Assembly (NCBI GenBank): GCA_036676705.1
Contig: JAKFCJ010000207.1
Span: 15-64,014 of the forward strand
Direction of reading: 5' to 3'
Source: Bacteroidota bacterium
GTDB lineage: Bacteria; Bacteroidota; Bacteroidia; UBA8524
DNA length: 64,000 bases
Positions 299 through 64,000 of the stretch are shown here, piece after piece. A model generated the notes under the pieces. The model ran no database searches and was not told where the DNA came from. It was given only the letters and a program-made list of their open reading frames with translations. Numbering within the stretch: position 1 is the stretch's first letter; every line of letters starts with the position of its first letter. A program made the position numbers and the translations under genes.

Positions 299-1810
299 CT
301 AGTTGGTAATTTTTAGCAAAAGCAGATCCTGCCCAGGGAAATAGAGAGCCGTATCGTGGTAGAACGAGTCGGGAATGGCATTATACCCGTTATATCCGGC
401 GTATTCCCGCTTGTCTGTGTAGATATAATAATAATCAACTTTCGCCATACGAACACTATCCGCATCGCCCTGTATTAGTTCCACCCAGGGATAGTTGTTT
501 GTATTTTTCACATGCCTCATCGAGACGTTAATGATCCAGCTATGGTCGAGATAAAGCGTATCCTGCCTTTGTTGCCCTTCTTTGTTCAGGTAATCCATGA
601 CCTCCTCCGATCTCGCGTCGAAAGGCCAGGAATAGCTATAACTCAGGTTCGCCAAATGTACAAAGTTGACAAGGGCCGCCAGGCTCAGGATAGTCATGCC
701 AGACAAGGCAATTTTTCCATACGGCTTATCCACCGCCAATTCGCAGGCAGCAAGCACCATCCAGACCAGGGGCAGAAGAAATACCAGCGCGGTTCGCTCG
801 ACTAGAAATGGCGTTCTGAAAAGTTGGTTTTGGAGCAGGGATGAAAGGCAGAGCATGACAAAAAGCAACGCGAACATGAAGAAAGGTGTTCCTAAACTTT
901 GTTTGGGCGCCTTTTCCTTCCTCAGGTAAATGAGGCAGCTCAGGACCAGCTGAAGGGCGATGGTCAGCAGGACGAAATGGGCAATGCGATCCGGCGTTTC
1001 GAAACCCATAATTCCGAGAAATAAGGAAGTGAATGTATCATAGACCAGGCCGGTTTGGCCCCCATACCAGAGTTCATCGCCCAGTCTTAACTTGATGATG
1101 GGCTTAATGATAATGGCGAAAAGGATAAGCGTGGGAATTGCAAGGCCTGAGGTTAAGGTTGAGGTTGGGTGCCTGCCGTAACGCAGGGGAAGGAGGGAGG
1201 GTTTTATCCAGGCCAGGTAAACGAGAACGGGAAGGAGGGCCAGATAGAAATTAAGCCAGGTGAAATTGGCGAGGACCGCGAGGGCAGCAAAGGTTAAGGT
1301 TAAGGTTGCGTGCCCGCCGAAACGCATGTGAAGGCGGGAGGTTGAGTGCCCGCGGTATTGGTCCAGGTAATAGAGACTCGCTGTGGTGAATGCGAGGGCC
1401 ATTCCGTAACCCCGGGTGAGGCTGAAAAATTCGAGCAGAAAGGGATTGAAAAAGCAGAGCACAAAAGCCATGACCTGCAGGGAAGTTGAAGACAGCCTGC
1501 GCAGGAGCCGGATACTGAACCAGGCATAAAGTAAAAATGCCAGCACGTTTGGAAGCCGGTAGAGGAAGGGTTCTGACAAGGCGAACAAGGTTTTGTTCTG
1601 CTGAATCAGCCAGACAAAGAGTGAATTCAACAGATGGGAATTCGAGCCAAGGCCCTGGTAGGTGAAGATATCGGTAAATGTGCGGTCAGCAAGGGAATCA
1701 ATCGTCCAGAGTTCGTCGTAAGTGAGCGGAATGACCGTTGCCCGCAGGATGACATAAATGAAACAAAGAAGTGCGGCAAGCTGTGGCCAATAAGGGATCC
1801 ATTTCTTCAT
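299..1810 (-). CDS. Polytopic membrane glycosyltransferase, GT39/GT83-like (ArnT/PMT-type). An N-terminal loop carries a DE motif (PLTYDELW)
   Basis: 503 aa with more than 10 predicted TM helices. The DE motif is in the first periplasmic loop. The protein contains an internal nucleotide-level duplicated segment. Confidence 0.55.
   Translation of the reverse strand: MKKWIPYWPQLAALLCFIYVILRATVIPLTYDELWTIDSLADRTFTDIFTYQGLGSNSHLLNSLFVWLIQQNKTLFALSEPFLYRLPNVLAFLLYAWFSIRLLRRLSSTSLQVMAFVLCFFNPFLLEFFSLTRGYGMALAFTTASLYYLDQYRGHSTSRLHMRFGGHATLTLTFAALAVLANFTWLNFYLALLPVLVYLAWIKPSLLPLRYGRHPTSTLTSGLAIPTLILFAIIIKPIIKLRLGDELWYGGQTGLVYDTFTSLFLGIMGFETPDRIAHFVLLTIALQLVLSCLIYLRKEKAPKQSLGTPFFMFALLFVMLCLSSLLQNQLFRTPFLVERTALVFLLPLVWMVLAACELAVDKPYGKIALSGMTILSLAALVNFVHLANLSYSYSWPFDARSEEVMDYLNKEGQQRQDTLYLDHSWIINVSMRHVKNTNNYPWVELIQGDADSVRMAKVDYYYIYTDKREYAGYNGYNAIPDSFYHDTALYFPGQDLLLLKITN
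1151..1204. repeat. Intragenic copy A of the GGTTRA-hexamer plus GC-hairpin mini-element
   Basis: ggttaaggttgaggttgggtgcctgccgtaacgcaggggaaggagggagg is about 85 percent identical to copy B at 1291..1345. Its hexamer head is shared with the intergenic elements at 47914 and 62872. Confidence 0.5.
1291..1345. repeat. Intragenic copy B of the GGTTRA-hexamer plus GC-hairpin mini-element
   Basis: ggttaaggttaaggttgcgtgcccgccgaaacgcatgtgaaggcgggagg. It has a cccgcc/ggcggg stem. Confidence 0.5.
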
Positions 1811-1873: not shown

Positions 1874-3727
1874 ATGAAACAGGCGAAATATAGCTTGGGG
1901 GTTTTGTTGCTTTCCATGGCTGTTATCTTCATTATCCGGGTATTGATCGCGGATAGCGCCAACTCACTCACCTGGGATGTATTTGGCTATTACCTCTACC
2001 TCCCCGCCTATTTTATTTATGATGATCCTACCCTCCAAAATATGGATTGGGTCAATCATATCATTGAAACCTACCATTCAACCGGCACCTTGTACCAGGC
2101 TGTTCAGGTTGAGTCGGGCAACTGGGTGATGCGTTACCCCGGCGGACCGGCACTTTTGAACTTACCGGCTTTTTTGCTGGCAGATAATCTTGCCGAACCC
2201 CTGGGTTATGTGCGCGACGGCTTCTCCAAACCCTACCAGTTTGCCTGGGTATTCGGGAGCATGCTTTATGCTTTTGTTGGCCTCATTTTTTCACGAAAAC
2301 TACTGCTGAAATTCTTTTCCGACCAATGGACAGCCGGGATACTGGTTCTTCTCGTCTTTGCCACCAATTACCTTGAGATAGCCACCTACGCCAATCCCCT
2401 TTCGCATAATTTTCTTTTTGCTTTATATGCCATCGCCCTTTATGCAATAAGCAGCTGGTCGGAGAAGATCCCCTTGGGCAGCGCATTAGGGGTTGGCGTG
2501 CTCATCGGACTGATCACCATGTGCCGGCCGAATGAAGGGCTTTTTATCCTGATACCCCTTCTCTGGAAATGTGCTCCATGGAGTTCGTCAGTACCCTATT
2601 CCACTTTTCTAAGAAACAATATCAAGGCTTTTCTCCTCGCAGCCCTGGGTTTGTTTCTGGGAGGATTGCCACAACTTCTTTACTGGAAATATGCAAGTGG
2701 AGAATGGCTCTTCTACTCTTACCAGGATAACGGCGTTGGCTTCGATCTTTTTGCTCCACATACCCGGGAATTCCTTTTCAGCTACCGTAAAGGCTGGTTT
2801 GTCTATACTCCGGTCATGCTTCTCGCAACCCTTGGTTTTATCCGGCTCTATCGGGTAAAAAGGAAGCTTTTTATTCCCTTTTTTGTCTTCTTCCTGCTCA
2901 ATCTCTATATCGTTTCTGCCTGGTCGGTTTGGTGGTATGGAGGAGGCAGCTATAGTTCCAGATCCATGGTTTCTGCTTATTTGATCATGGCTTTTCCCCT
3001 GGGTTATTTATTGATGTGGTTAAAAGAAAAAGGGAAGCTGATCTGGACCGTTACGCTGGCATTATTGGCTATTATGATCGTATTGAACCTCTTTCAATTC
3101 TGGCAGTTTAAAGCCAGGATCATAGATGGAGAGCGAATGACAGGGGCCTACTACTGGCGCATTTTCGGAAAAACATCCATACCTGAAGGTGCTGAAAAAT
3201 TCATGCTGGTTGAACGCCAGGCGGTGGCGCATGAGCAGATGCCCGGGGATACCAGTCATTTAACCCGGGATATACTTTTTGAAGAATGGCTGGGAACAAC
3301 ATCGAACCAGGAAAATCAGGTGAAACTCGACTGGCCGGATGGAAGCAGGGAAGCTGTTTGCCAGCTGGACGAAAGCCATCCTTATACCCGGGCTTTTGAG
3401 ATGGGGTATAAAGAAATCACCTCCAAAGAATACGCCTGGCTAAGGATAAACGCAGAAATTTACATCCCCGATTCGGTGAATGCAGAGCCGCCCATGCTGG
3501 TTACGCATTTTATGTACAAAGAGCGGCCATACAAATACACCACCACCGAATACCTGGGGCCTGCCCTTAAAAAAGGAGAGTGGCAACGTATCAGTATGGA
3601 CTACATGACCCCGGAGGTGAGGACTAAGGCGGATAAGGTAAAAATATTTCTTTGGTACCGGGGAAAAGACCCCATTTATGCGCGGAGTTTGGAGATTATC
3701 AAATACGAGCCTAAAACTGCTCCATAA
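1874..3727 (+). CDS. Polytopic membrane protein, probably a second GT39/ArnT-like glycosyltransferase. It is divergent from the 299..1810 gene
   Basis: 617 aa with a multi-TM N-terminal half and a soluble C-terminal domain, an architecture typical of PMT/ArnT-like enzymes. Confidence 0.45.
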   Translation: MKQAKYSLGVLLLSMAVIFIIRVLIADSANSLTWDVFGYYLYLPAYFIYDDPTLQNMDWVNHIIETYHSTGTLYQAVQVESGNWVMRYPGGPALLNLPAFLLADNLAEPLGYVRDGFSKPYQFAWVFGSMLYAFVGLIFSRKLLLKFFSDQWTAGILVLLVFATNYLEIATYANPLSHNFLFALYAIALYAISSWSEKIPLGSALGVGVLIGLITMCRPNEGLFILIPLLWKCAPWSSSVPYSTFLRNNIKAFLLAALGLFLGGLPQLLYWKYASGEWLFYSYQDNGVGFDLFAPHTREFLFSYRKGWFVYTPVMLLATLGFIRLYRVKRKLFIPFFVFFLLNLYIVSAWSVWWYGGGSYSSRSMVSAYLIMAFPLGYLLMWLKEKGKLIWTVTLALLAIMIVLNLFQFWQFKARIIDGERMTGAYYWRIFGKTSIPEGAEKFMLVERQAVAHEQMPGDTSHLTRDILFEEWLGTTSNQENQVKLDWPDGSREAVCQLDESHPYTRAFEMGYKEITSKEYAWLRINAEIYIPDSVNAEPPMLVTHFMYKERPYKYTTTEYLGPALKKGEWQRISMDYMTPEVRTKADKVKIFLWYRGKDPIYARSLEIIKYEPKTAP

Positions 3728-4121
3728 GATCCGCAACCTGTTTCACAACCGCAATATCGGCAGGCGCCCAATTCATGTGTGGCAGGTCATGGTGGCTTAG
3801 CCAACGAAATTCTTCATGTTCCTGGAGCCGGATCTCTCCTGCAGGCAATTCACAAACGATGGGAATGAGGCGGATGAGTTCCTTGTTATCCTGCCACCAT
3901 ACATGGGTGAGGGTCATAATGGGAATAACCTGGACAGAAAGCTCCTCTTCAATTTCCCGGATGATGGCATTTTTTTGGGTTTCTTCAAATTCCACCTTTC
4001 CTCCCGGAAACTCCCAATGCCCGGCCAAACGCTGCTTTTCCGAACGTTTAACTGCCAATACCTGACTGTTTTTCAGGATGATGGCACAAACAACGTTTAG
4101 ATATGGCTTCTCCATAATCAA
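3711..4121 (-). CDS. NUDIX hydrolase (MutT-like nucleoside triphosphate pyrophosphohydrolase)
   Basis: Nudix box GKVEFEETQKNAIIREIEEELSV (G-x5-E-x7-REuxEEL). Confidence 0.8.
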   Translation of the reverse strand: MIMEKPYLNVVCAIILKNSQVLAVKRSEKQRLAGHWEFPGGKVEFEETQKNAIIREIEEELSVQVIPIMTLTHVWWQDNKELIRLIPIVCELPAGEIRLQEHEEFRWLSHHDLPHMNWAPADIAVVKQVADLMEQF

Positions 4122-5377
4122 GAAAGTATGCGTAAACGAACATCGCCGATCCTGGCATGCTGCAAACTGAGAATGTGGAACTCAAAGCGGTCAATAGCCA
4201 GCGTTTCGCCTTTTTCAGGCAAACTTTCGTAACGGGCTATGATATACCCCCCCAGGGTTTCATACTCTCCTTCCGGGATGTTAAGTTCGTAAGTTTCATT
4301 CAAATAATCAACTTCCAAACGCGCAGAAAGCCGAAATTCTGTGTCACTGATCTTTTCTTCGGTCAGGTTTTCTATATCGTGCTCATCATCGATCTCTCCA
4401 AAGATCTCTTCAAGAATATCTTCGATGGTAACGATACCCGCCGTTCCTCCAAATTCATCAACAACCACCGCTAAACTTTTGCGGTTGGCTGTAAATTTTT
4501 TCAAAAGCTCATTGGCCGGCATGGATTCCGTTGCGATCACAATGGGGATCATACTGGCTTTGATACTTTCCGGTTTATGGAACAGATCAACCTGATGCAC
4601 GTACCCGATAATATTGTCAACCGAATCTTTATACACCAGCACCTTGGAATGGCCGCTTTCTATAAAGGTATCCCAAAGGTCTTCGATGGTATCATTAAGT
4701 TCAACGGCCACTACCTCATTCCTGGGCACCATACATTCGCGCACCTTTACCTGGTCGAAATCCAACGCGTTACGGAAAACTTCCGTATCCAATTCCGACT
4801 CTTCTTCCGTATCCATATTGATACTTTCGGAGATATAATGGTCGAGGTCGACCTTGGTAAAAAGCAGTTCCTTTTGTTCTTTGTCATTTCCGGTGAGGAG
4901 ACGAAGAAAATGTTCGGCCAGCCAGTTAACAGCCCAGACCAAAGGCCATAGCAGGTAATAAATAACCTGGAAAGGGAATATCATGGGCGGAAGCAGGGTA
5001 TCCGCATTGAGGTTAAAAATTACTTTAGGAAGAAACTCAGCCACGACCAGGATCAATAAGGTCGATAGCAGGGTTTGGATCATCAGGTTTAAAAACTCGT
5101 AGGATGCCCAGGGAGCCGTGTCAAACCAGTGAAACAAGACTCCTTCCATAAAAATACCATAAATAACAAGCGCCACATTATTGCCTACAAGCACGGTACT
5201 GATAAAACGAGAAGGTCGTTTTATGTAGTTGGAAAGGATCTTTCCCCATAAAACGCCTTGCTTATTTTTTAACTCGATACGTAGCTTGTTCGACGATAAA
5301 AAGGCGATCTCAATCCCTGAAAAAAAGGCAGAGAGAATAAGCATGAATAAGATAACAAGTCCCGAATGACTATCCAT
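4118..5377 (-). CDS. CNNM/CorC-HlyC family membrane protein with DUF21, two CBS domains and a CorC_HlyC domain. This is the Bacteroidota GldE-like protein
   Basis: 419 aa. It has an N-terminal 4-TM DUF21 domain, then CBS domains, and a C-terminal transporter-associated domain (LNIPEGEYETLGGYI). Confidence 0.8.
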   Translation of the reverse strand: MDSHSGLVILFMLILSAFFSGIEIAFLSSNKLRIELKNKQGVLWGKILSNYIKRPSRFISTVLVGNNVALVIYGIFMEGVLFHWFDTAPWASYEFLNLMIQTLLSTLLILVVAEFLPKVIFNLNADTLLPPMIFPFQVIYYLLWPLVWAVNWLAEHFLRLLTGNDKEQKELLFTKVDLDHYISESINMDTEEESELDTEVFRNALDFDQVKVRECMVPRNEVVAVELNDTIEDLWDTFIESGHSKVLVYKDSVDNIIGYVHQVDLFHKPESIKASMIPIVIATESMPANELLKKFTANRKSLAVVVDEFGGTAGIVTIEDILEEIFGEIDDEHDIENLTEEKISDTEFRLSARLEVDYLNETYELNIPEGEYETLGGYIIARYESLPEKGETLAIDRFEFHILSLQHARIGDVRLRILS

Positions 5378-28719: not shown

Positions 28720-28727
28720 GGAAGTCG

Positions 28728-28800
28728 ACGGTCAACAGACTACAGTCAACAGAATTATTCCAGGTTACTAAAAGCGCAAAAAACTGTTGACCGTTGTCTG
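28728..28800. terminator. Inverted-repeat structure between convergent genes, a candidate bidirectional terminator
   Basis: cgacggtcaacag ... ctgttgaccgttg inverted pair, with four gtcaacag/ctgttgac copies. Confidence 0.35.
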
Positions 28801-47316: not shown

Positions 47317-47919
47317 TTGAGCATGAATTTGGATTTTTTTAAAAAGGATAAGGTATTTTATGATGCGATAAAACACATAACATTACCTGACTACACTCCT
47401 TCTGATAACTATTTTCATTACCTGCTGAGGGCCATCGCGTTCCAACAACTTTCCGGCAAAGCCGGAGCCACCATTCATGGCCGTTTTCTACAGCTTTTTC
47501 CCGATCAGAATCCGGAACCGGGTTTTTTACTTGAACTGGAACATGACGCATTGCGCGGCGCAGGACTATCAGGACAAAAAGCTGCCTACATGAAAAATAT
47601 AGCCGATTTCTGGCTGAAAGAAAGCCTGACAAATGCAAAGATCGATCGCCTTGGCGATGAGGATATCCTGGATTATCTTACCCAGATCAAGGGCGTAGGC
47701 AAATGGACGGTTGAGATTTTCCTTATGTTCGGCATGGGCAGGCCTGATCTGTTTCCGCTCGACGATCTGGGTTTGCAGCAGGGTGTTGCCGGTATTTATG
47801 GCTTGAATCACCTGCCCTTAAAAGAACTCAAAAAGGAAATGGTTCGTATATCGGATGGATGGAGGCCACATCGGACCAAAGCGGCGCTTTATGTTTGGAG
47901 ATGGAAAGATGGAGGTTAA
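47317..47919 (+). CDS. HhH-GPD DNA glycosylase (AlkA-like DNA-3-methyladenine glycosylase II)
   Basis: GVGKWTVEIFLMFGMGRPDLFPLDDLGL (HhH-GPD with a catalytic Asp). Confidence 0.75.
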   Translation: MSMNLDFFKKDKVFYDAIKHITLPDYTPSDNYFHYLLRAIAFQQLSGKAGATIHGRFLQLFPDQNPEPGFLLELEHDALRGAGLSGQKAAYMKNIADFWLKESLTNAKIDRLGDEDILDYLTQIKGVGKWTVEIFLMFGMGRPDLFPLDDLGLQQGVAGIYGLNHLPLKELKKEMVRISDGWRPHRTKAALYVWRWKDGG

Positions 47920-47981
47920 GGTTAAGGTTGAGGTTGAGGTTGAGGTTGAGGTTGAGTGTCGGGGCAGAAAATCTTCTGCCC
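47914..47981. repeat. (GGTTAA)2(GGTTGA)5 hexamer array plus the GGGCAGAA/TTCTGCCC hairpin. It acts as a bidirectional terminator element between convergent genes
   Basis: Seven perfect tandem hexamers. The first one contains the alkA-like stop codon. An 8-bp stem hairpin lies at 47962..47981. Confidence 0.7.
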
Positions 47982-47995
47982 TTGATGCGGGGGAG

Positions 47996-48901
47996 TTATA
48001 AATTCAGTAAAGTGTAGTACACCCCGTCGATCACCTTACCCATTCTGTATATATCAAGGGTTTCCAGGGTATCTGTTTTTCTGTGATAATTTTTATTTCG
48101 ATAGAAGGAAGTATCAGTGAGCATGAGGGCACTAAAACCGAATTTCCAATAGTTCCTATGGTCGGAATAGTCGATCCCGGGAACGAGTTTGGGAGCGGTG
48201 AATTTTTTTGTTCTTACTGATTTTGTGGAGACATAACGTCTTGAAAATTTACGCGCAAATTTTCCGGATCCGAATTTTTTTACCAGGGTAATGTAATTTC
48301 CTTTTTTGCCATAAAACCATGAAAGCAGGCCTATTGGATAGGCTTGTGAACCCGGCTCGTCCTTAAAGCAGGCGATCATCTCCAGAGAGACCATTCCATA
48401 TACAGGAATCTCAGCATCAGCAAGGGACTTTGCATGGACATAGCTGCCCATATTTTCGGTCCTGAAATAAGGGGGTTCTTCAAGGGTATATGCCACAAGA
48501 TCGATACGATGGTTCAATGCCTTTCCTTTTAACAGCCTTGCCAGCTCCAACAAACCCACAACTCCACTGGCATTATCGTCAGCTCCTTCCTGATTGCCGC
48601 AAACATCGTAATGGGCACCAACGATGATCCTTTTCATGTGTTCAGTTCCGAATGAACAGATCACATTTTTGTAGACGAATCCGTTGACCGTATATTCCTG
48701 AAAAAAAACACTGTCGGTATATAGGAGGAAAACAGCTCTTATATAATCGGCTGTTTTGTTGAGCTGAGTGATGTTTTGATAGGTTCGCGGAGTATCCGTT
48801 TTTGTAATGGCAACCAGGTGAGTCCGGATAATGGCAGTGTCGGAACCTGTGCCAAAAACCAATAAAGGAGCAAGAAGCAGAATTAAAAGAAGGGCCCTCA
48901 T
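47996..48901 (-). CDS. M28 family zinc aminopeptidase, secreted
   Basis: HYDVCGNQEGADDNASGVVGLLELAR with a signal peptide. Confidence 0.8.
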   Translation of the reverse strand: MRALLLILLLAPLLVFGTGSDTAIIRTHLVAITKTDTPRTYQNITQLNKTADYIRAVFLLYTDSVFFQEYTVNGFVYKNVICSFGTEHMKRIIVGAHYDVCGNQEGADDNASGVVGLLELARLLKGKALNHRIDLVAYTLEEPPYFRTENMGSYVHAKSLADAEIPVYGMVSLEMIACFKDEPGSQAYPIGLLSWFYGKKGNYITLVKKFGSGKFARKFSRRYVSTKSVRTKKFTAPKLVPGIDYSDHRNYWKFGFSALMLTDTSFYRNKNYHRKTDTLETLDIYRMGKVIDGVYYTLLNL

Positions 48902-50403: not shown

Positions 50404-51300
50404 CTATTTTTTCTTTTGCTCCTTAAAAATTCCTTCCAGTGTTTTTTTGTATTCGGTGTATTTGTACAGGTTGTTCTCTTTTAAAATGGAACCGAACAAA
50501 AGGTCATTCTTTTCCTTTTCTGAACCATTTTCCTTGTTGAGGCAGATCAAATGGAAAATAAGTGTTTCATAATACTTGTTCAGGTAATAGCTCTTATAGC
50601 TTTGAATCCCTTTCGATTTATCAATAACCATTTCAAAATCAGCAAAGTAAAAGTCGCTATAGTGATAATAGGGACTGCCATTGATTTTCGGAAATTTTTT
50701 AATGAGCGTATAGGCCATTTCCGTGTTCGGCGGCTTAGGGATATTCATATACCCCCAAATATTGGTTCCACACAAGCTAATCGCACGAAGGACCAGAATT
50801 CCCTTTTCTGTGTCGTCTTTCAGGTTGTAGTCTTTTAATTTTAAATCGACCCTGGCCATATTGAAAGGTTTATTTTTGTTTCCAACCGCGGTAAATAACA
50901 TACCATAGTAATTATTAACCAATTCGTAAGTCTGGATTTGGTTGGATAGTAAACTGTCGATCAATTTAGTGTTGCTGATCTGGTTCTCTTCCCGAAGATT
51001 TTCGCTGATAGCCCGGATAATAAAGAGCTGTTTTAAAATGGTATCGTTTGGACGGGCAAGATAGGTTTGGTCCAGAAGTTTATTCTTCGTTGTGATTGTC
51101 TGGGAGATAAATTCAGTTGCTGTTTCCATGCCTTTAGGAACATCATCTTCCAGTTCTTTGATCACTTCCTTGCCTGGCTCCTTGCCAAACATATAATCCT
51201 TGTAACTTTTACCAAGTTCGATCAACTTTTCATATTCGGTGCTTTGTCCGAAGCTGTGCATGGATAAACAAAGTGCAACAAGGGTAAATCTTATTTTCAT
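50404..51300 (-). CDS. Secreted K/N/Y-rich hypothetical protein in an AT-rich segment
   Basis: The signal peptide MKIRFTLVALCLSMHSFGQ starts at an internal Met. GC is markedly lower than in the flanking DNA. Confidence 0.45.
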   Translation of the reverse strand: MKIRFTLVALCLSMHSFGQSTEYEKLIELGKSYKDYMFGKEPGKEVIKELEDDVPKGMETATEFISQTITTKNKLLDQTYLARPNDTILKQLFIIRAISENLREENQISNTKLIDSLLSNQIQTYELVNNYYGMLFTAVGNKNKPFNMARVDLKLKDYNLKDDTEKGILVLRAISLCGTNIWGYMNIPKPPNTEMAYTLIKKFPKINGSPYYHYSDFYFADFEMVIDKSKGIQSYKSYYLNKYYETLIFHLICLNKENGSEKEKNDLLFGSILKENNLYKYTEYKKTLEGIFKEQKKK

Positions 51301-51610
51301 ATTCGGGAGGTGTTTTCTATTCATGAGAACCACTGATAGGGGTTCAATATAGGTGAGCGAGGGTGAAATTTCCAATTTTTGGGTTGGTTAGGTTGTTATT
51401 TTTCAAACAACCGAATGGCATATCATAATGAATGGAAGGGATCCAATAGTCTCCTATCGATTTGACCGGTAGCTTTTGCGGATATGATGAGAACTGAAAT
51501 GGTACCGGCAACTACCTCGAAGAAACGGAGCGATAAAGACGAGGGTAATTTCATGGTTGATCGTTAATACCGAAACCTTGAATTAGTCAACACAGATAAT
51601 GGGTTTTTTT

Positions 51611-52023
51611 GATCCGACTCAAACATTCTTTTTTGCGGGTAGGTGTCCCACCGACCCGCACTCAAGCGGGAGAAGGGACTGCAGGAATTTCCTTCTCATT
51701 CGAGGAAAAGAAATGTGAAAGTTTTTAGTGGTTCCGGACGAAATTGTTGATCCGACCGTCAAGTTGATCCGCAGAGTAGAAGCGATTCGGTGGGACACCG
51801 AACCGCTAAAGGTTTTTTTTGATCCGACTCAAACCGGCCTTTTGCGGGTAGGTGTCCCACCGACCCGCACTCACCAGCGGGAGAAGCGACTGTAGGAATT
51901 TCCTTCTCATTCCAGTAAAAGAAATGTGAAAGTGTTTAGTGGTTCCGGACGAAATTGTTGATCCGACCGTCAAGTTGATCCGCAGAGTAGAAGCGATTCG
52001 GTGGGACACCGAACCGCTAATGG
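51611..52023. repeat. Two tandem copies of a ~205 bp structured repeat, each bounded by ~25 bp inverted repeats (gcgggtaggtgtcccaccgacccgc ... gcgattcggtgggacaccgaaccgc)
   Basis: Units 51611..51812 and 51821..52023 are more than 90 percent identical. Each has internal hairpins such as gagaag...cttctc. Confidence 0.8.
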
Positions 52024-52102
52024 ATTTTGATTTACGAAGTGATATTTTGACATTCTCACGACATAGTTGGCTGAAAAATGACCGTGAACTAACATTCCAA
52101 TC

Positions 52103-52609
52103 GTGAACTTAGTGTTTATGATTGAAACCAAATTTTTCACGGCCGTTGTAGAAAAAAGGAAGCCAATATTTGATGTGGATGGAGCGGATTTTATTAAAGT
52201 AATTGAAGGCTCTCTTGGCTATTTTTCAGCTAAAGCGCAATTTCAACTACATGCCTATGCTATAATGCCGAACCATGTTCATTTTTTGTATAGTGAGCCG
52301 AAGGACGGTGATTTATTTAGAGTTCCATTCATAAGGTTTACTGCGCATGAAATATTGAGATTAAACATTGGCCGGCCAATGAACAAAAGAGTTGATTTTG
52401 TAGTAAATAAGTCGGATAGAGTCGAGCAAGTTTGGCGTAGAAAATCAAAGACCATTCTGGTCAAAGATGAAAGGGTATATTTTGCCGTTCTCAACTATAT
52501 CCGGAAAAACACAGAGTCTGTTTTTTGGAAAGAAAGTATTAATCGACTAGCATTGGAACCCAGAGTACCATGCGTATCACGCGATTGGAAAAGTAATTTA
52601 CCAAACTAA
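52103..52609 (+). CDS. IS200/IS605-family HuH-Y1 transposase, RAYT-like (REP-associated tyrosine transposase)
   Basis: HuH motif MPNHVHFL and a downstream Tyr in NYIRKN at about +75 aa. 168 aa. It is flanked on both sides by the structured repeats. Confidence 0.6.
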   Translation: MNLVFMIETKFFTAVVEKRKPIFDVDGADFIKVIEGSLGYFSAKAQFQLHAYAIMPNHVHFLYSEPKDGDLFRVPFIRFTAHEILRLNIGRPMNKRVDFVVNKSDRVEQVWRRKSKTILVKDERVYFAVLNYIRKNTESVFWKESINRLALEPRVPCVSRDWKSNLPN

Positions 52610-54681: not shown

Positions 54682-56004
54682 ATGGACGTGTGGATGTATT
54701 TGCTGATCGGGTTGGCTGCCGGAGGAATGGCCGGGTATTTTTTTGCCATAGCCCGAAAACTTAAGGAAGGCGAATCCCTTCAATCCATACAAATTGAAAA
54801 AGCACGGGTCGAACAAAACCTGCAGGCTGCCGAAAACAGAAGAGCGGAGTTGGAACGCCGGCTTCTGGAACTCGAATCCTTTAACCAAACACTGTTGCAT
54901 GAAAACGCAGTGTTGAAAACCGAAGGACTCGGATTGCAGCAACGCATGGCCGAACAAAAAGAGGAGCTGGAAAAACTGAACGAACGTATGTCGCTGCAAT
55001 TCAAGAATCTGGCGAACGAGATCCTCGAAGAAAAAAGCAAAAAATTCACCGACCAGAACAAGATCAATATCGGGGAACTGCTTAACCCGCTCAAAGAGAA
55101 AATCGGCGAGTTTGAAAAGAAGGTAGACGAAAGCAACAAGGAAAATGTACGCATGAACAGTTCCCTTGGTGAACAACTCAAGAACCTGAAAGAACTCAAT
55201 CAACAAATTACCAAAGAAGCGGAGAACCTCACCCGGGCGCTGAAAGGCGATACCAAAACACAGGGAAACTGGGGGGAATTTATCCTTGAAAAAATTCTCG
55301 AACGAAGCGGACTGGTCAAAGGACAAGAATTTATCGTTCAGGAAAGTACCACTATGGAAGGCGGCCGGTTGCGACCCGATGTGGTCATCAAACTGCCCGA
55401 TAACAAGAATATTGTCGTTGACTCCAAGGTGTCACTGACAGCCTATGAACAGGCCATGAATGCAGGGGATGATGTTGAACGGGCCATGCATATGAAAATG
55501 CACGTTCAATCCATCAAAAATCATATCCGGCAACTCTCTTCCAAAGATTATCAGAAACTTTACGGTGTAGAAGGATTGGATTTTGTGCTTCTTTTCATTC
55601 CCATCGAACCGGCTTTCAGCTCAGCCCTGCAGGCAGAATCCGACCTCTTCAACCAGGCTTATGAAAAGCAGATCGTGTTGGTAAGTCCGAGTACGTTGCT
55701 GGCTACCCTGCGTACCGTGGCAAATATCTGGCGTTACGAATACCAGAACCGAAACGTGCTCGAAATAGCGCGTCAGGCCGGGGATATGTACGATAAGTTC
55801 GTCAATTTTTCGGAAGACCTGATCAAGTTGGGTGTTCAGATGGATACCTCAAAAAAGACCTATTCCGACGCCATGAACAAGCTCGTTGATGGGTCCGGAA
55901 ACCTGATCCGCCGCGCAGAAAAACTCAAGGAGTTGGGGGCTAAGACGTCGAAGCAGATGAATGATAAATTGTTGGACAGGAGTGAGAGTGGAAGTGAAAA
56001 GTGA
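54682..56004 (+). CDS. rmuC: DNA recombination protein RmuC
   Basis: N-terminal TM helix, long coiled coil, and the C-terminal RmuC domain LVSPSTLLATLRTVANIWRYEYQNRN. Confidence 0.85.
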   Translation: MDVWMYLLIGLAAGGMAGYFFAIARKLKEGESLQSIQIEKARVEQNLQAAENRRAELERRLLELESFNQTLLHENAVLKTEGLGLQQRMAEQKEELEKLNERMSLQFKNLANEILEEKSKKFTDQNKINIGELLNPLKEKIGEFEKKVDESNKENVRMNSSLGEQLKNLKELNQQITKEAENLTRALKGDTKTQGNWGEFILEKILERSGLVKGQEFIVQESTTMEGGRLRPDVVIKLPDNKNIVVDSKVSLTAYEQAMNAGDDVERAMHMKMHVQSIKNHIRQLSSKDYQKLYGVEGLDFVLLFIPIEPAFSSALQAESDLFNQAYEKQIVLVSPSTLLATLRTVANIWRYEYQNRNVLEIARQAGDMYDKFVNFSEDLIKLGVQMDTSKKTYSDAMNKLVDGSGNLIRRAEKLKELGAKTSKQMNDKLLDRSESGSEK

Positions 56005-56063
56005 AAAGTGAAAGGCAGCTATTGCTTAAAGCCTGCAGCCTATAGCCTATAGCCTATAGCCAT
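55994..56063. repeat. Tandem heptamers (GTGAAAA)x3 then (AGCCTAT)x3, spanning the rmuC stop codon
   Basis: Direct inspection. The rmuC TGA stop lies inside the second GTGAAAA. Confidence 0.6.
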
Positions 56064-61784: not shown

Positions 61785-61956
61785 TACGTCAGCTAAAAGG
61801 TTGATTTACAGTAAAAAGTAAAAAATTTATAATTTTTTTACGTTCCGGGCAACATTTGGCAAAATAAGTGCATCATCTTTGTACCGGAGTTAACCACTCT
61901 GTTCGTTCTTTTTAAAATCTCTTCATAGAGTTTTGGTTTGGTTTGGTTTTACAAAG

Positions 61957-61981
61957 GCGCTCTTCGGAGCGCTTTTTTTTT
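61957..61981 (+). terminator. Rho-independent terminator
   Basis: GCGCTC-ttcg-GAGCGC stem followed by T9. Confidence 0.6.
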
Positions 61982-61993
61982 ATCTTGCGCCCT

Positions 61994-62869
61994 ATGCGAT
62001 CTGGCCTGTTTATACTAATTGTAAGTACCCTTATTTCTTGTTCCACGCCTAAAGTCATGAACCAATCGGGTCGGGTAACACCAAAGGGAACAGTTGTCGG
62101 GGGAATTACCTATATGGCCAATGTTTCGCAGGAAAGCTCTGTACGGATGAGCGATGTCTTAAAAAATCAGATCAAAAATTTTAGCAGCGGCGATACCGTT
62201 CAATACGACCAGTTCCTTAGTGATGCCAATGCGGCCATTGTGGCATATGCCGTCGACCCGATCGCTTTTGGTCCACAGTTTTATTTGAGAGTAGGGGTTT
62301 GGGATCGCCTGGAATTGGGGTACACCCGCGCAAAGGGAACCAACATGTTCAGTGCACAAGGTCAGTTCATGGGATTTGAAAAGGAAAGAATTGAGGAGAG
62401 TAAAAAGCGCTGGTTTGGAAGTGGCGGCGTACAATACTCCTGGAATTCATACAACCTCCCCAATTTTTTCGGCAAAATGCAAGACAGATTTGGTTTTGAA
62501 TACAAACGCCGTGATTTTCTGCTTCCTTTTACTTTTTCCTATTCACTTGGTCCGAACGAAACCTATGGGGCGATAGGATTTGGTGCTGTTGTCGGCTTTC
62601 ATCGTATCGACTATTCCTTCCTTCCCGACAGGATCGTCAACGACAAAGGTGTTGTGCTAAAGCCTGGGAATCACACCAATAAATTCAGTTCCATAGGATT
62701 TTTTGTGAATGTGAAGGCAGGTTATAAGTTTGTCTATATCATTCCTTCCATTGCCGTCTATTACCAGCAGTATGGAACCTATCCGTTACTGGACCGGTCT
62801 TCCTTGTTTTTGGAGGGTTTCACCTTCGTTCCGGGGATCAGCTTGCAATTGAATACGATGCGGAAATAG
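61994..62869 (+). CDS. Lipoprotein, hypothetical (beta-rich)
   Basis: The internal start MRSGLFILIVSTLISC gives a lipobox. The upstream Met would overlap the terminator. Confidence 0.45.
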   Translation: MRSGLFILIVSTLISCSTPKVMNQSGRVTPKGTVVGGITYMANVSQESSVRMSDVLKNQIKNFSSGDTVQYDQFLSDANAAIVAYAVDPIAFGPQFYLRVGVWDRLELGYTRAKGTNMFSAQGQFMGFEKERIEESKKRWFGSGGVQYSWNSYNLPNFFGKMQDRFGFEYKRRDFLLPFTFSYSLGPNETYGAIGFGAVVGFHRIDYSFLPDRIVNDKGVVLKPGNHTNKFSSIGFFVNVKAGYKFVYIIPSIAVYYQQYGTYPLLDRSSLFLEGFTFVPGISLQLNTMRK

Positions 62870-62871
62870 GT

Positions 62872-62934
62872 GGTGTAGGTTGTAGGTTGTAGGGGCAGAA
62901 GATTTTCTGCCCCTACAACCTACAACCTACAACC
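62872..62934. repeat. About 30-bp perfect palindrome built from (GGTTGTA)x3 plus GGGGCAGAA/TTCTGCCCC. It is a bidirectional terminator overlapping the uvrB stop
   Basis: tggtgtaggttgtaggttgtaggggcagaa gatt ttctgcccctacaacctacaacctacaacc. The uvrB TAG lies inside the right arm. Confidence 0.75.
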
Positions 62935-64000
62935 CTGTTTCGCCGGCCAACTTCTCCTTCAAGCCCATCAACTCATCCCGCAGCCGGGCGGCGCTCATAA
63001 AATCCAACTCTTTGGCGGATTTTAACATGGCTTTTTCCGTTTCGCTGATCGCCTTTTTCAGTTTGTCACCGGTCAGGTATTTCATGATCGGGTCGGCTGC
63101 GACAGAATTTGTTTCCTCGGGCTCGACGTATATTTTCGCGATCGCTCCTTTATAGTCGACAACAGAGGTTTGTTTCATAATGGCTTCTCTCGACTTGAAA
63201 ACCGTTGTCGGGGTGATGCCATGTTCGGTATTGTAGGCGATTTGTTTTTCGCGACGGCGGTTGTTCTCTTCAATGGTTTTGGCCATGCTGTCGGTCATCC
63301 GGTCGGCATACATGATCACTTTACCACGCTGGTTCCTGGCAGCCCGGCCTATGGTTTGCGTGAGCGAACGGGCACTGCGTAAGAAGCCTTCTTTGTCGGC
63401 ATCCATAATGGCAACAAAGGAAACTTCAGGCAAATCAAGTCCTTCCCGCAGCAGGTTAACCCCAACCAAAACATCAAATTCGCCCAAACGCAAGCCGCGT
63501 AAAATTTCAACACGTTCGAGGGTTTTTACTTCGGAGTGGATGTATTGGCAACGAATCCCGAGGCGCGACATGTATTTGGTCAGTTCTTCGGCCATTCTTT
63601 TGGTGAGGGTTGTTACAAGGATACGGTCGCCCATTTTGATGCGGTCGTCGATCTCTTCCAAAAGATCATCGACCTGGTTCAGCGAGGGACGAACCTCAAT
63701 GACCGGATCAAGCAGGCCCGTGGGGCGAATGATCTGCTCCACCACCACGCCATCTGACTCTGCCACTTCAAAATCAGCGGGAGTAGCTGAAACATAAATA
63801 ACCTGTTTGATGATGGAATAAAACTCATCAAAGGTTAAAGGGCGGTTATCCATTGCCGCAGGAAGCCGGAATCCATAATCGACCAGATTGATCTTGCGCG
63901 AACGGTCTCCTCCATACATGGCCCTTACCTGAGGGATGGAAACATGGCTTTCATCCACCACCAGTAAAAAATCATCCGGAAAATAATCCATCAAACAAAA
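62927..64000 (-). CDS. uvrB: Excinuclease ABC subunit B, C-terminal part. The gene continues past the window end
   Basis: Helicase C-terminal motifs TIGRAARN and UVR domain [15 protein letters not shown]. Confidence 0.9.

Follow-up and report, generated by a model that had tools for sequence, protein, structure and literature searches.

A short in-frame repeat in two loops of a predicted GT-C-fold membrane protein: probable local expansion and intragenic copying

The minus-strand open reading frame at 299..1810 of the window (the whole 64 kb stretch of DNA that was analysed) carries two similar segments that lie close together and are translated in the same frame. A preliminary description had read them as two copies of a mini-element, composed of a hexamer array and a GC hairpin, that is tolerated within the gene of a "GT39-like" membrane glycosyltransferase. 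The question raised by the locus is where such a repeat came from: from an inserted element, from an old repeat of the protein, or from the recent evolution of the gene itself.

The repeat search located a pair of direct repeats at 1150-1200 and 1291-1341, 51 nt each, which are 86% identical and separated by 141 nt from start to start; comparison of the same two segments by blastn agreed, with 7 mismatches in 51. For the core pattern GGTTGNGTGCCYGCCGWAACGCA two matches were observed, against 0.00 expected by chance. Since the spacing equals 47 codons, both copies are read in one frame, that of the ORF 299..1810 on the minus strand. Copy 2 (1291..1341, minus strand) encodes SRLHMRFGGHATLTLT (aa 158-173) in a loop designated loop 1, and copy 1 (1150..1200, minus strand) encodes SLLPLRYGRHPTSTLT (aa 205-220) in loop 2; for reasons given below, copy 2 is taken as the older copy and the donor, and copy 1 as the younger one, located at the recipient site. 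Each copy opens with three GGTTRA units, as detected by TRF and by pattern search. The array in copy 1 (GGTTRA x3.3, 1148..1167, period 6) reads T-S-T-L-T-S on the coding strand, and that in copy 2 (GGTTAA x3, 1290..1307, period 6) reads T-L-T-L-T. The cores occupy 32 nt each (1169-1200 and 1310-1341). A partial third copy, unit a (about 1337..1357, minus strand; YRGHSTS, aa 152-158), adjoins copy 2 and belongs to a 20-nt sub-family, family D2, with 80-85% identity; its sequence GCGGGCACTCAACCT is identical to GCGGGCACGCAACCT of copy 2 in 14 of 15 positions, a score reached by 0/2000 shuffles. All copies fall in a single 210-nt stretch of one gene and share their orientation and frame.

Comparison of the 16 codons shared by copies 1 and 2 gave 85% identity for the DNA and 9/16 (56%) for the protein. 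The mismatches fall on codon positions 2, 2, 1, 2, 1, 1 and 2; third positions are free of them (0/7), and all seven differences are non-synonymous, with no synonymous ones. Where the two copies encode the same residue, they use the same codon in 9 of 9 cases. In these respects, that is, a DNA-level repeat, duplicated peptides in frame on the minus strand, and mismatches that do not accumulate at third positions, the preliminary description was borne out.

The host gene (299..1810, minus strand) encodes a polytopic membrane protein of 503 aa, for which a GT-C glycosyltransferase fold is predicted. The protein matched no Pfam family at E <= 0.1 and no NCBIfam family, and a PDB profile search with a 12-homolog profile retrieved no solved glycosyltransferase by sequence. 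An AlphaFold2 model was built on the 12-homolog alignment (mean pLDDT 78.9, pTM 0.83) and was compared with known structures using Foldseek. The best matches were ALG12 (9s6t_A, E 2e-5) and ArnT (5ezm, 2.4e-5), together with ALG9, STT3, AftB, Pmt4 and PglB; the probability was 1.00 for all seven, with TM-scores of about 0.5. In the first loop, D32 and E33 are invariant across the 12 homologs. Thus two features of GT-C membership were found, the fold similarity to solved enzymes and the acidic motif in the first extracytoplasmic loop, and they support the assignment of the host, at the level of the predicted fold, as a membrane glycosyltransferase with predicted activity. Like the GT-C enzymes ArnT (GT83), ALG9 and ALG12 (GT22), PMT (GT39) and STT3/PglB, the host protein is polytopic and matches them in its predicted fold; its first loop contains the invariant D-E pair, and its C-terminal domain is mixed alpha/beta. 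In contrast to them, it has no detectable membership in their sequence families. It would therefore be placed, on the model, among poorly characterised GT-C-fold membrane proteins. Of the label GT39-like the GT-C fold was retained, and GT39 (PMT) was dropped, as neither PMT nor PMT_2 was matched as a sequence family. In the model three segments have pLDDT values below 50 (156-158, 205-213 and 391-395), the first two of which coincide with the repeat copies; the segments are thus situated in those two loops that the model predicts with the least confidence, in agreement with the predicted loop/TM region named originally.

Sixteen relatives of the host were found in the protein database, and five of them (L001, L002, L005, L006 and L007) were taken together with their DNA. 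The five assemblies have conserved synteny, consisting of a NUDIX gene, a divergently transcribed gene for a 617-aa membrane protein, the host gene and a PcrB-like gene. Protein identity to the host in the window is 76% for L001, 69% for L002, 66% for L005 and about 56% for L006 and L007. The relatives of the window are Bacteroidota-like. The codon alignment comprised six syntenic orthologs, and distant homologs (23-34% identity) were added in the protein alignment. In both alignments about 15 extra residues (…SRLHMR[FY]GGHA…) are present in loop 1 of the window and of L001 only, and they are absent from L002, L005, L006, L007 and the distant homologs. The copy 2 insert is thus common to the window and its 76%-identical relative alone, and its core is identical to that of L001 in 40 of 41 positions. 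Copy 1 was seen, again in both alignments, in the window only. Loop 2 is short in every ortholog and contains a conserved R/S/Q-F-W; in the window, copy 1 stands at the R-F-W site of the orthologs, and the loop reads …LPLRYGRHPTSTLTSG… there. L001 has a separate and different extension in loop 2, HSPSPSTSTFPF, which contains TCAACCTCAACC. Loop 2 of L001 and loop 2 of the window have CAACCTCAACCTT in common, which suggests that the array predated the copying, i.e. that the recipient loop may have carried it beforehand. Relative to the syntenic orthologs, both segments are lineage-specific insertions, as the preliminary description had expected; the pattern that it named as the mark of an old internal duplication, the same peptides in distant orthologs with divergence at synonymous sites, was not observed in the homologs aligned.

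The codon alignment also bears on the nature of the hexamer head. The 3' end of copy 2 in the coding sense, TTAACCTTAACC, corresponds to the ancestral T-L-T-L that opens the next helix, and the head has its orthologous counterparts in TTAACATTAACC of L002 and CCAACCTTAACCTTAATC of L005, two relatives that are devoid of the core. The codons at this site are TTA ACA TTA ACC TGG in L002 and CCA ACC TTA ACC TTA ATC TGG in L005, and in both they encode T-L-T-L ahead of the conserved W/F-A-A-L-A-V helix. At the same site T-L is found in L006 and L007 too, encoded by other codons. With orthologous arrays found at the copy 2 site in L001, L002 and L005, the hexamer head of copy 2 is ancestral coding sequence located outside the insertion.

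In global alignment with L005, the copy 2 site displays a clean in-frame insertion within the array, 30 nt long in L001 and 24 nt long in the window, and the flanks of the insertion align well with L005. The sequence GCGGGCAC.CAACCT repeats neighbouring loop codons, with 14/15 identities in the window and a score that 0/2000 shuffles reach, and CCGCCTTCA occurs twice in L001 (9/9; 68/2000 shuffles reach the score, p ~0.03). Serial local duplication of a Y-R-L-H unit appears to be the most likely source of copy 2 and is moderately supported by these matches. Where the 24-30 nt inserted in loop 1 came from can be traced only weakly.

The direction of the copying can be read from local alignments of the loop DNA. 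Within the window, loop 1 aligned to loop 2 with a score of 37 (z 17), and loop 2 of the window aligned with loop 1 of L001 with a score of 39 (z 18), whereas its alignment with the orthologous loop 2 of L001 scored 14 (z 3.4), which corresponds to an 18-nt match between the arrays. No similarity was detected between loops 1 and 2 in L002, L005, L006 and L007 (z -0.7 to 0.3). These scores indicate that loop 2 of the window was copied from loop 1, of which it is a paralogous copy, and that the gene contains no ancient internal repeat. In blastn comparisons copy 1 matched copy 2 of L001 in 45 of 51 positions and the window's own copy 2 in 44 of 51, which fits with the descent of copy 1 from an ancestral copy 2. 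A three-way reading showed that copy 1 and copy 2 of L001 share two states, and therefore five changes are assigned to copy 1 and two to copy 2 of the window. Concerning the age of the event, codons for the same residue are identical in 56% of cases between the window and L001 genes; against this background the chance of obtaining 9/9 identical codons is 0.56^9, or about 0.005. This comparison dates the copying after the split between the window and L001 lineages, and such an age, estimated from codon identity, fits with the absence of copy 1 from L001. The repeat thus shows the properties of a recent duplication: similarity between the paralogs exceeds that between the recipient site and its ortholog, and synonymous sites place the paralogs after the split.

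Taking these observations together, we consider it probable, with a chance of roughly three in four, that the repeat arose in two steps: loop 1 first expanded locally and in frame, and a 51-nt tract was then copied ectopically within the gene into loop 2. The process would have started from the short (TYAACC)n array in which loop 1 ends in the clade of the window, L001, L002 and L005, and which encodes S/L-T dipeptides where the next helix starts. The ancestor shared by the window and L001 would then have gained 24-30 nt in frame within this array; the insertion itself is visible in the alignment, and its source may have been serial duplication of the neighbouring Y-R-L-H codons, giving ...SRLHMR(Y/F)GGHAT(S/L)TLT. 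In the window lineage only, the 51-nt tract would have been copied 141 nt downstream into loop 2, where it displaced the ancestral ...R-F-W segment. Judged from the end product, in which the copied tract is evident, the mechanism could have been ectopic intragenic gene conversion or template switching during replication, and the copying may have been seeded by the short (TYAACC)n arrays in both loops. Since then the copies have accumulated the seven non-synonymous and no synonymous differences described above (five in copy 1, two in copy 2), and they would have drifted, presumably neutrally, under weak constraint in poorly ordered loops. The segments would be tolerated because they lengthen two loops between helices. 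We infer no function for them at the level of DNA or RNA, and the repeat looks like the product of an ordinary kind of event in local gene evolution.

A different view of the same segments is that R-[YF]-G-x-H-x-T-[SL]-T-L-T constitutes a functional motif, for example a His/Arg site near the membrane surface, which was duplicated and then retained by selection. The DNA similarity would in that case be a by-product of recent duplication and protein constraint, and the mutational origin could be the same as the one proposed above. Copies 1 and 2 do retain the residues R, G, H and T-x-T-L-T, some of which also persist in unit a, the copy 2 core is conserved between the window and L001 (40/41 nt), and the exclusively non-synonymous differences between the copies could represent adaptation to a new position. 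We regard selection for such a motif as unlikely, however. None of the other orthologs has it, not even those at 66-69% identity, and it is therefore not needed for the function of the family, and the segments are the parts of the protein that were modelled with the least confidence. Seven non-synonymous and no synonymous differences in 16 codons fit neutral drift, with P ~0.13 if about a quarter of random changes are estimated to be synonymous. Within the insert, the window and L001 agree in 8 of 9 codons, against the 56% background (p ~0.04), a value that we do not regard as significant. Horizontal spread, considered as the cause of this extra conservation of the insert, was not convincing.

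According to the preliminary description the two copies resemble elements in intergenic regions of the window. An alternative is that a dispersed small mobile element, comparable to an RPE or a MITE, inserted in frame twice and independently; it would be made up of a GGTTRA array and a GC hairpin and be related to the elements at 47914 and 62872. A GGTTRA array with the same unit as the intragenic arrays is in fact present between genes at 47912-47956 and is followed by a hairpin. In some other genomes several loci have a GGTTGA array with a GC palindrome behind it (L014, L064 and L068 carry GTGCGGCTGCGCCGCAC), and in the urocanase of L078, from other Bacteroidota, a GGTTRA array is accommodated in frame in a conserved gene. 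On the other hand, the head of copy 2 was found to be ancestral coding sequence, and the kinship with the intergenic elements is limited. The hexamer head is shared with the element at 47914, but not with that at 62872, which is built of 7-nt units, GGTTGTA (TRF period 7, 62874-62893 and 62912-62934), and gave no match to the GGTTRA array pattern. When the cores were aligned locally with the two intergenic elements, 141-891 of 1000 shuffles scored as well. The two intergenic elements share GGGCAGAARATYTTCTGCCC with each other, and the tie between them and the repeat consists of the hexamer array alone.

The structural features of an element were also not found at the repeat. The repeat search detected 0 inverted repeats in 1000-1500, and hence no terminal inverted repeats, and direct reading of the flanks (...GGCCTG / GTTTTA... 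for copy 1 and ...GCAGCAA / TTGAGT... for copy 2) revealed no visible target-site duplication. The GC hairpin that had been ascribed to both copies could be drawn for one: a 6-bp stem (CCCGCC/GGCGGG) is possible in copy 2, whereas copy 1 folds differently, and neither of the two differences between the copies at stem positions (C to T and C to A) is compensatory. Folding was no better than that of shuffled sequences (z -1.2 and -0.75 on the plus strand, +0.36 and -0.34 for the mRNA, minus strand). An Rfam search of 1050-1450 by E-value yielded nothing meaningful in the way of a known RNA family.

Copies were sought in the window, in its relatives and in two public collections. When up to 7 mismatches were allowed, the 32-nt core was found at the two sites in the window and at the orthologous site in L001, and nowhere else in the window, in L001-L007 or in the roughly 100 kb of sequence from relatives; blastn-short over 1.07 Mb added only chance matches of 11-12 nt inside the window. 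Of the source genome these searches covered the 64 kb of the window, and the core may therefore have other copies elsewhere in it. A scan of the collection genome_contigs, which does not include the source genome, for GGTTRAGGTTRAGGTTGNGTG returned 91 array stretches, 0 of which continued into the core, and a scan of metagenome_contigs, which does not include the source organism, for the core pattern returned 47 stretches, 0 with a hexamer head. The 47 metagenome matches fell into four groups: copies of group II introns, chance matches in GC-rich coding sequence (e.g. L116), a repeated GC-rich intergenic family without an Rfam match, and isolated hairpins. The core was considered as a structured module of group II introns, eight intron copies having been matched, and this was rejected: the motif is unpaired and rich in inserts in the Rfam alignment, and was therefore treated as a chance match amplified by the copy number of the introns. 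A candidate hairpin-loop sequence, G[AT]AACGCA[ATC]GTGAA, had a few intergenic metagenome matches (L099, L144/L105 and the L113/L142 group) with differing stems; the match in L116 is coding, and the set has no Rfam match and no hexamer head.

Insertion of a mobile element at both sites is, in view of these results, very unlikely. Besides the ancestral head, the unrelated cores and the hairpin that is neither common to the copies nor significant, the copies are confined to 210 nt of one gene in one orientation and frame, no further copy exists elsewhere in the 64 kb window or the relatives, and the insert is not wholly foreign, parts of its core repeating adjacent codons. The description of the segments as mini-elements is not supported by these data. 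As a counterpoint it may be mentioned that GGTTRA arrays do occur outside the host gene, between genes at 47912-47956 and in frame in the L078 urocanase, and an array-associated insertion process at the root of the clade is possible.

The idea that the segments go back to an old duplication, inside the protein, of a loop-plus-helix unit, which would accommodate the 47-codon spacing (about one helix plus one loop) and the weak W-A-x-L-A similarity past both loops in close orthologs, is hardly credible and, on the sequences compared, already refuted by the orthologs: loops 1 and 2 are unrelated in the four that have no inserts, the distant homologs have neither segment, and the copies combine 85% DNA identity with 56% protein identity and no synonymous differences.

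Local expansion and intragenic copying has its closest parallel in lineage-specific loop indels and short segmental duplications, as produced by slippage, template switching or ectopic gene conversion. The present repeat resembles these in keeping the frame and affecting only loops between helices, in having short tandem arrays at the junctions, in that the paralog resembles its donor more than it does the orthologous position, and in its young age by synonymous sites. It differs from them in that the copy is not in tandem, but 141 nt distant, on the far side of a conserved helix region, in that the conserved R-F-W was replaced rather than residues being simply added, and in that the mechanism is deduced from the end product.

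The GGTTRA arrays could also be imagined as a proliferating class of repeats in Bacteroidota, which enter or expand in genes and then seed in-frame remodelling of loops. Such a scenario is distinctly unlikely, but if it were true, it would represent a route of protein evolution similar to that of the Rickettsia palindromic elements (RPEs) outside Rickettsia, with the GT-C gene and the insert in the L078 urocanase as hot spots. RPEs are about 150 bp long and form ten families; R. conorii has 44 integrations of them, in unrelated genes (reviewed in PMC10969869). In common with RPEs and other intragenic MITEs (PMC10969869), the repeat described here is a short repeated DNA translated in frame at a position tolerated by the fold. 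In contrast to RPEs, the segment is 51 nt long and has no significant palindrome, its copies are located in one gene, and its sequence is traceable to neighbouring codons. The locus can serve as a worked example that an intragenic DNA repeat resembling a mobile mini-element may instead have arisen by recent local duplication, its head being ordinary coding sequence, and it shows how short coding hexamer arrays may promote in-frame remodelling of loops in GT-C-fold membrane proteins. It would bear on the wider question only if the array-seeded process proves to be general.

Some observations on the arrays themselves can be added. A literature search for the sequence of the hexamer array retrieved nothing relevant. 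Two suggestions concerning the arrays were discarded: a GTG following the array as the terminus of an element was present in only 1 of the 13 arrays that had not been chosen by the search pattern, and only 9 of 95 arrays fitted the idea that they are arrays of in-frame stop codons (GGT TRA) at gene ends. The intergenic elements have no T tract and therefore no canonical intrinsic terminator. Heterocystous cyanobacteria carry short tandemly repeated repetitive (STRR) arrays of heptamers, and the window is similar to them in having several tandem arrays with units of 6-7 nt at gene ends and in intergenic spacers. The arrays in the window differ in taxon, which is here Bacteroidota-like, and in their units, and the intragenic ones consist of three units and are orthologous coding sequence. 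Tandem arrays of 6-7 nt at gene ends and in spacers were found at 47912, 55981-56061, 62874/62912 and 28723.

Of the two intergenic elements to which the preliminary description had tied the intragenic repeat copies, the one at 62872-62936 is a long, near-perfect hairpin (-39.7 kcal/mol, z -14.7). Its arms consist of GGTTGTA heptamers with GGGGCAGAAGATTTTCTGCCCC between them, and it is sited between the convergent genes 61943..62869(+) and 62927..63994(-). This is probably a bidirectional terminator-like element. Its 20-nt core hairpin is also present at 47962, suggesting that this genome carries a small family of dispersed hairpins to which the two cores belong. In the second element, at 47912-47995, a GGTTRA array of 7.5 units precedes the hairpin GGGCAGAAAATCTTCTGCCC, whose fold has a z of -3.1; array and hairpin fill the 76-nt spacer between the convergent genes 47317..47919(+) and 47996..48901(-), and the stop codon of the upstream gene is in frame with the start of the array (..GGA GGT TAA). 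A simple terminator scan made no call at this element because it contains no T tract.

Short-period arrays were also found at gene ends or in spacers at 55981-56061, where three AAGTGAA units adjoin six CTATAGC units, and at 28723-28752 (AGTCAAC, four units). Taken with those at 47912 and 62874, these arrays point to an abundance of tandem repeats with 6-7-nt units in the genome, which recalls the STRRs of cyanobacteria. A longer tandem repeat, with a 211-nt unit present in 2.1 copies of 92% identity, occupies the intergenic positions 51597-52028 between genes 50404..51375(-) and 52103..52609(+).

Scanning of genome_contigs for GGTTRA arrays yielded 91 stretches (L008-L098), a raw count and not a measure of enrichment. 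The arrays had 3-14 units with GGTTGA and GGTTAA intermixed, and in some MAGs several loci were found per genome. Many of the hosts were Bacteroidota and Nitrospirota, and Geomonas, Syntrophorhabdus, Omnitrophota and cyanobacteria were also represented. In at least 15 of the 91 stretches an inverted array lies just 3' of the GGTTRA array, creating a long hairpin, and 26 of the 91 lie within long open frames. In L078, one of the 91 stretches, the array (3458-3478) is part of an in-frame insert in a urocanase ORF (2402-4138) of a Chitinophagaceae MAG. The insert (..DKMKNEKGKMQNAGIHSTSTLTFKLGR..) sits directly before FDFPGFVPAYIRPLFC and includes a repeat of the AAAATG type as well as the array; the Pfam Rossmann-like domain of this urocanase has 233 residues, compared with 209 positions in the profile.

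At several loci of one Chryseobacterium MAG and one Flavobacteriales MAG, a (GGTTGA)n array is followed by the palindrome GTGCGGCTGCGCCGCAC (L014, 37-57; L064, 775-795; L068, 5809-5829). Those two MAGs thus do possess a true 'array plus GC hairpin' element in dispersed copies, whose sequence is unrelated to the intragenic core of the window. Among the metagenome_contigs matches to the core pattern, eight contigs (L113, L142, L139, L106, L102, L145, L103 and L123) share a repeated GC-rich intergenic sequence containing GCGGCGTTTCGGCCTGYYTGCCGAAGCGCCTGCCAGCCGTAACGCATGTGAAGGCTGGGCAGCGCAGGCAGGCACGCAGGCG. It had no match in an Rfam search; in L102 it is located approximately 160 nt upstream of a tRNA.

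The glycosyltransferase-like host gene is transcribed divergently from a gene (1874-3727) encoding a 617-aa membrane protein, for which Pfam and NCBIfam searches returned no match. In each of the five syntenic relatives this neighbor likewise adjoins the host gene and is 617 aa long; it may be a functional partner of the host protein or a second GT-C-like enzyme.
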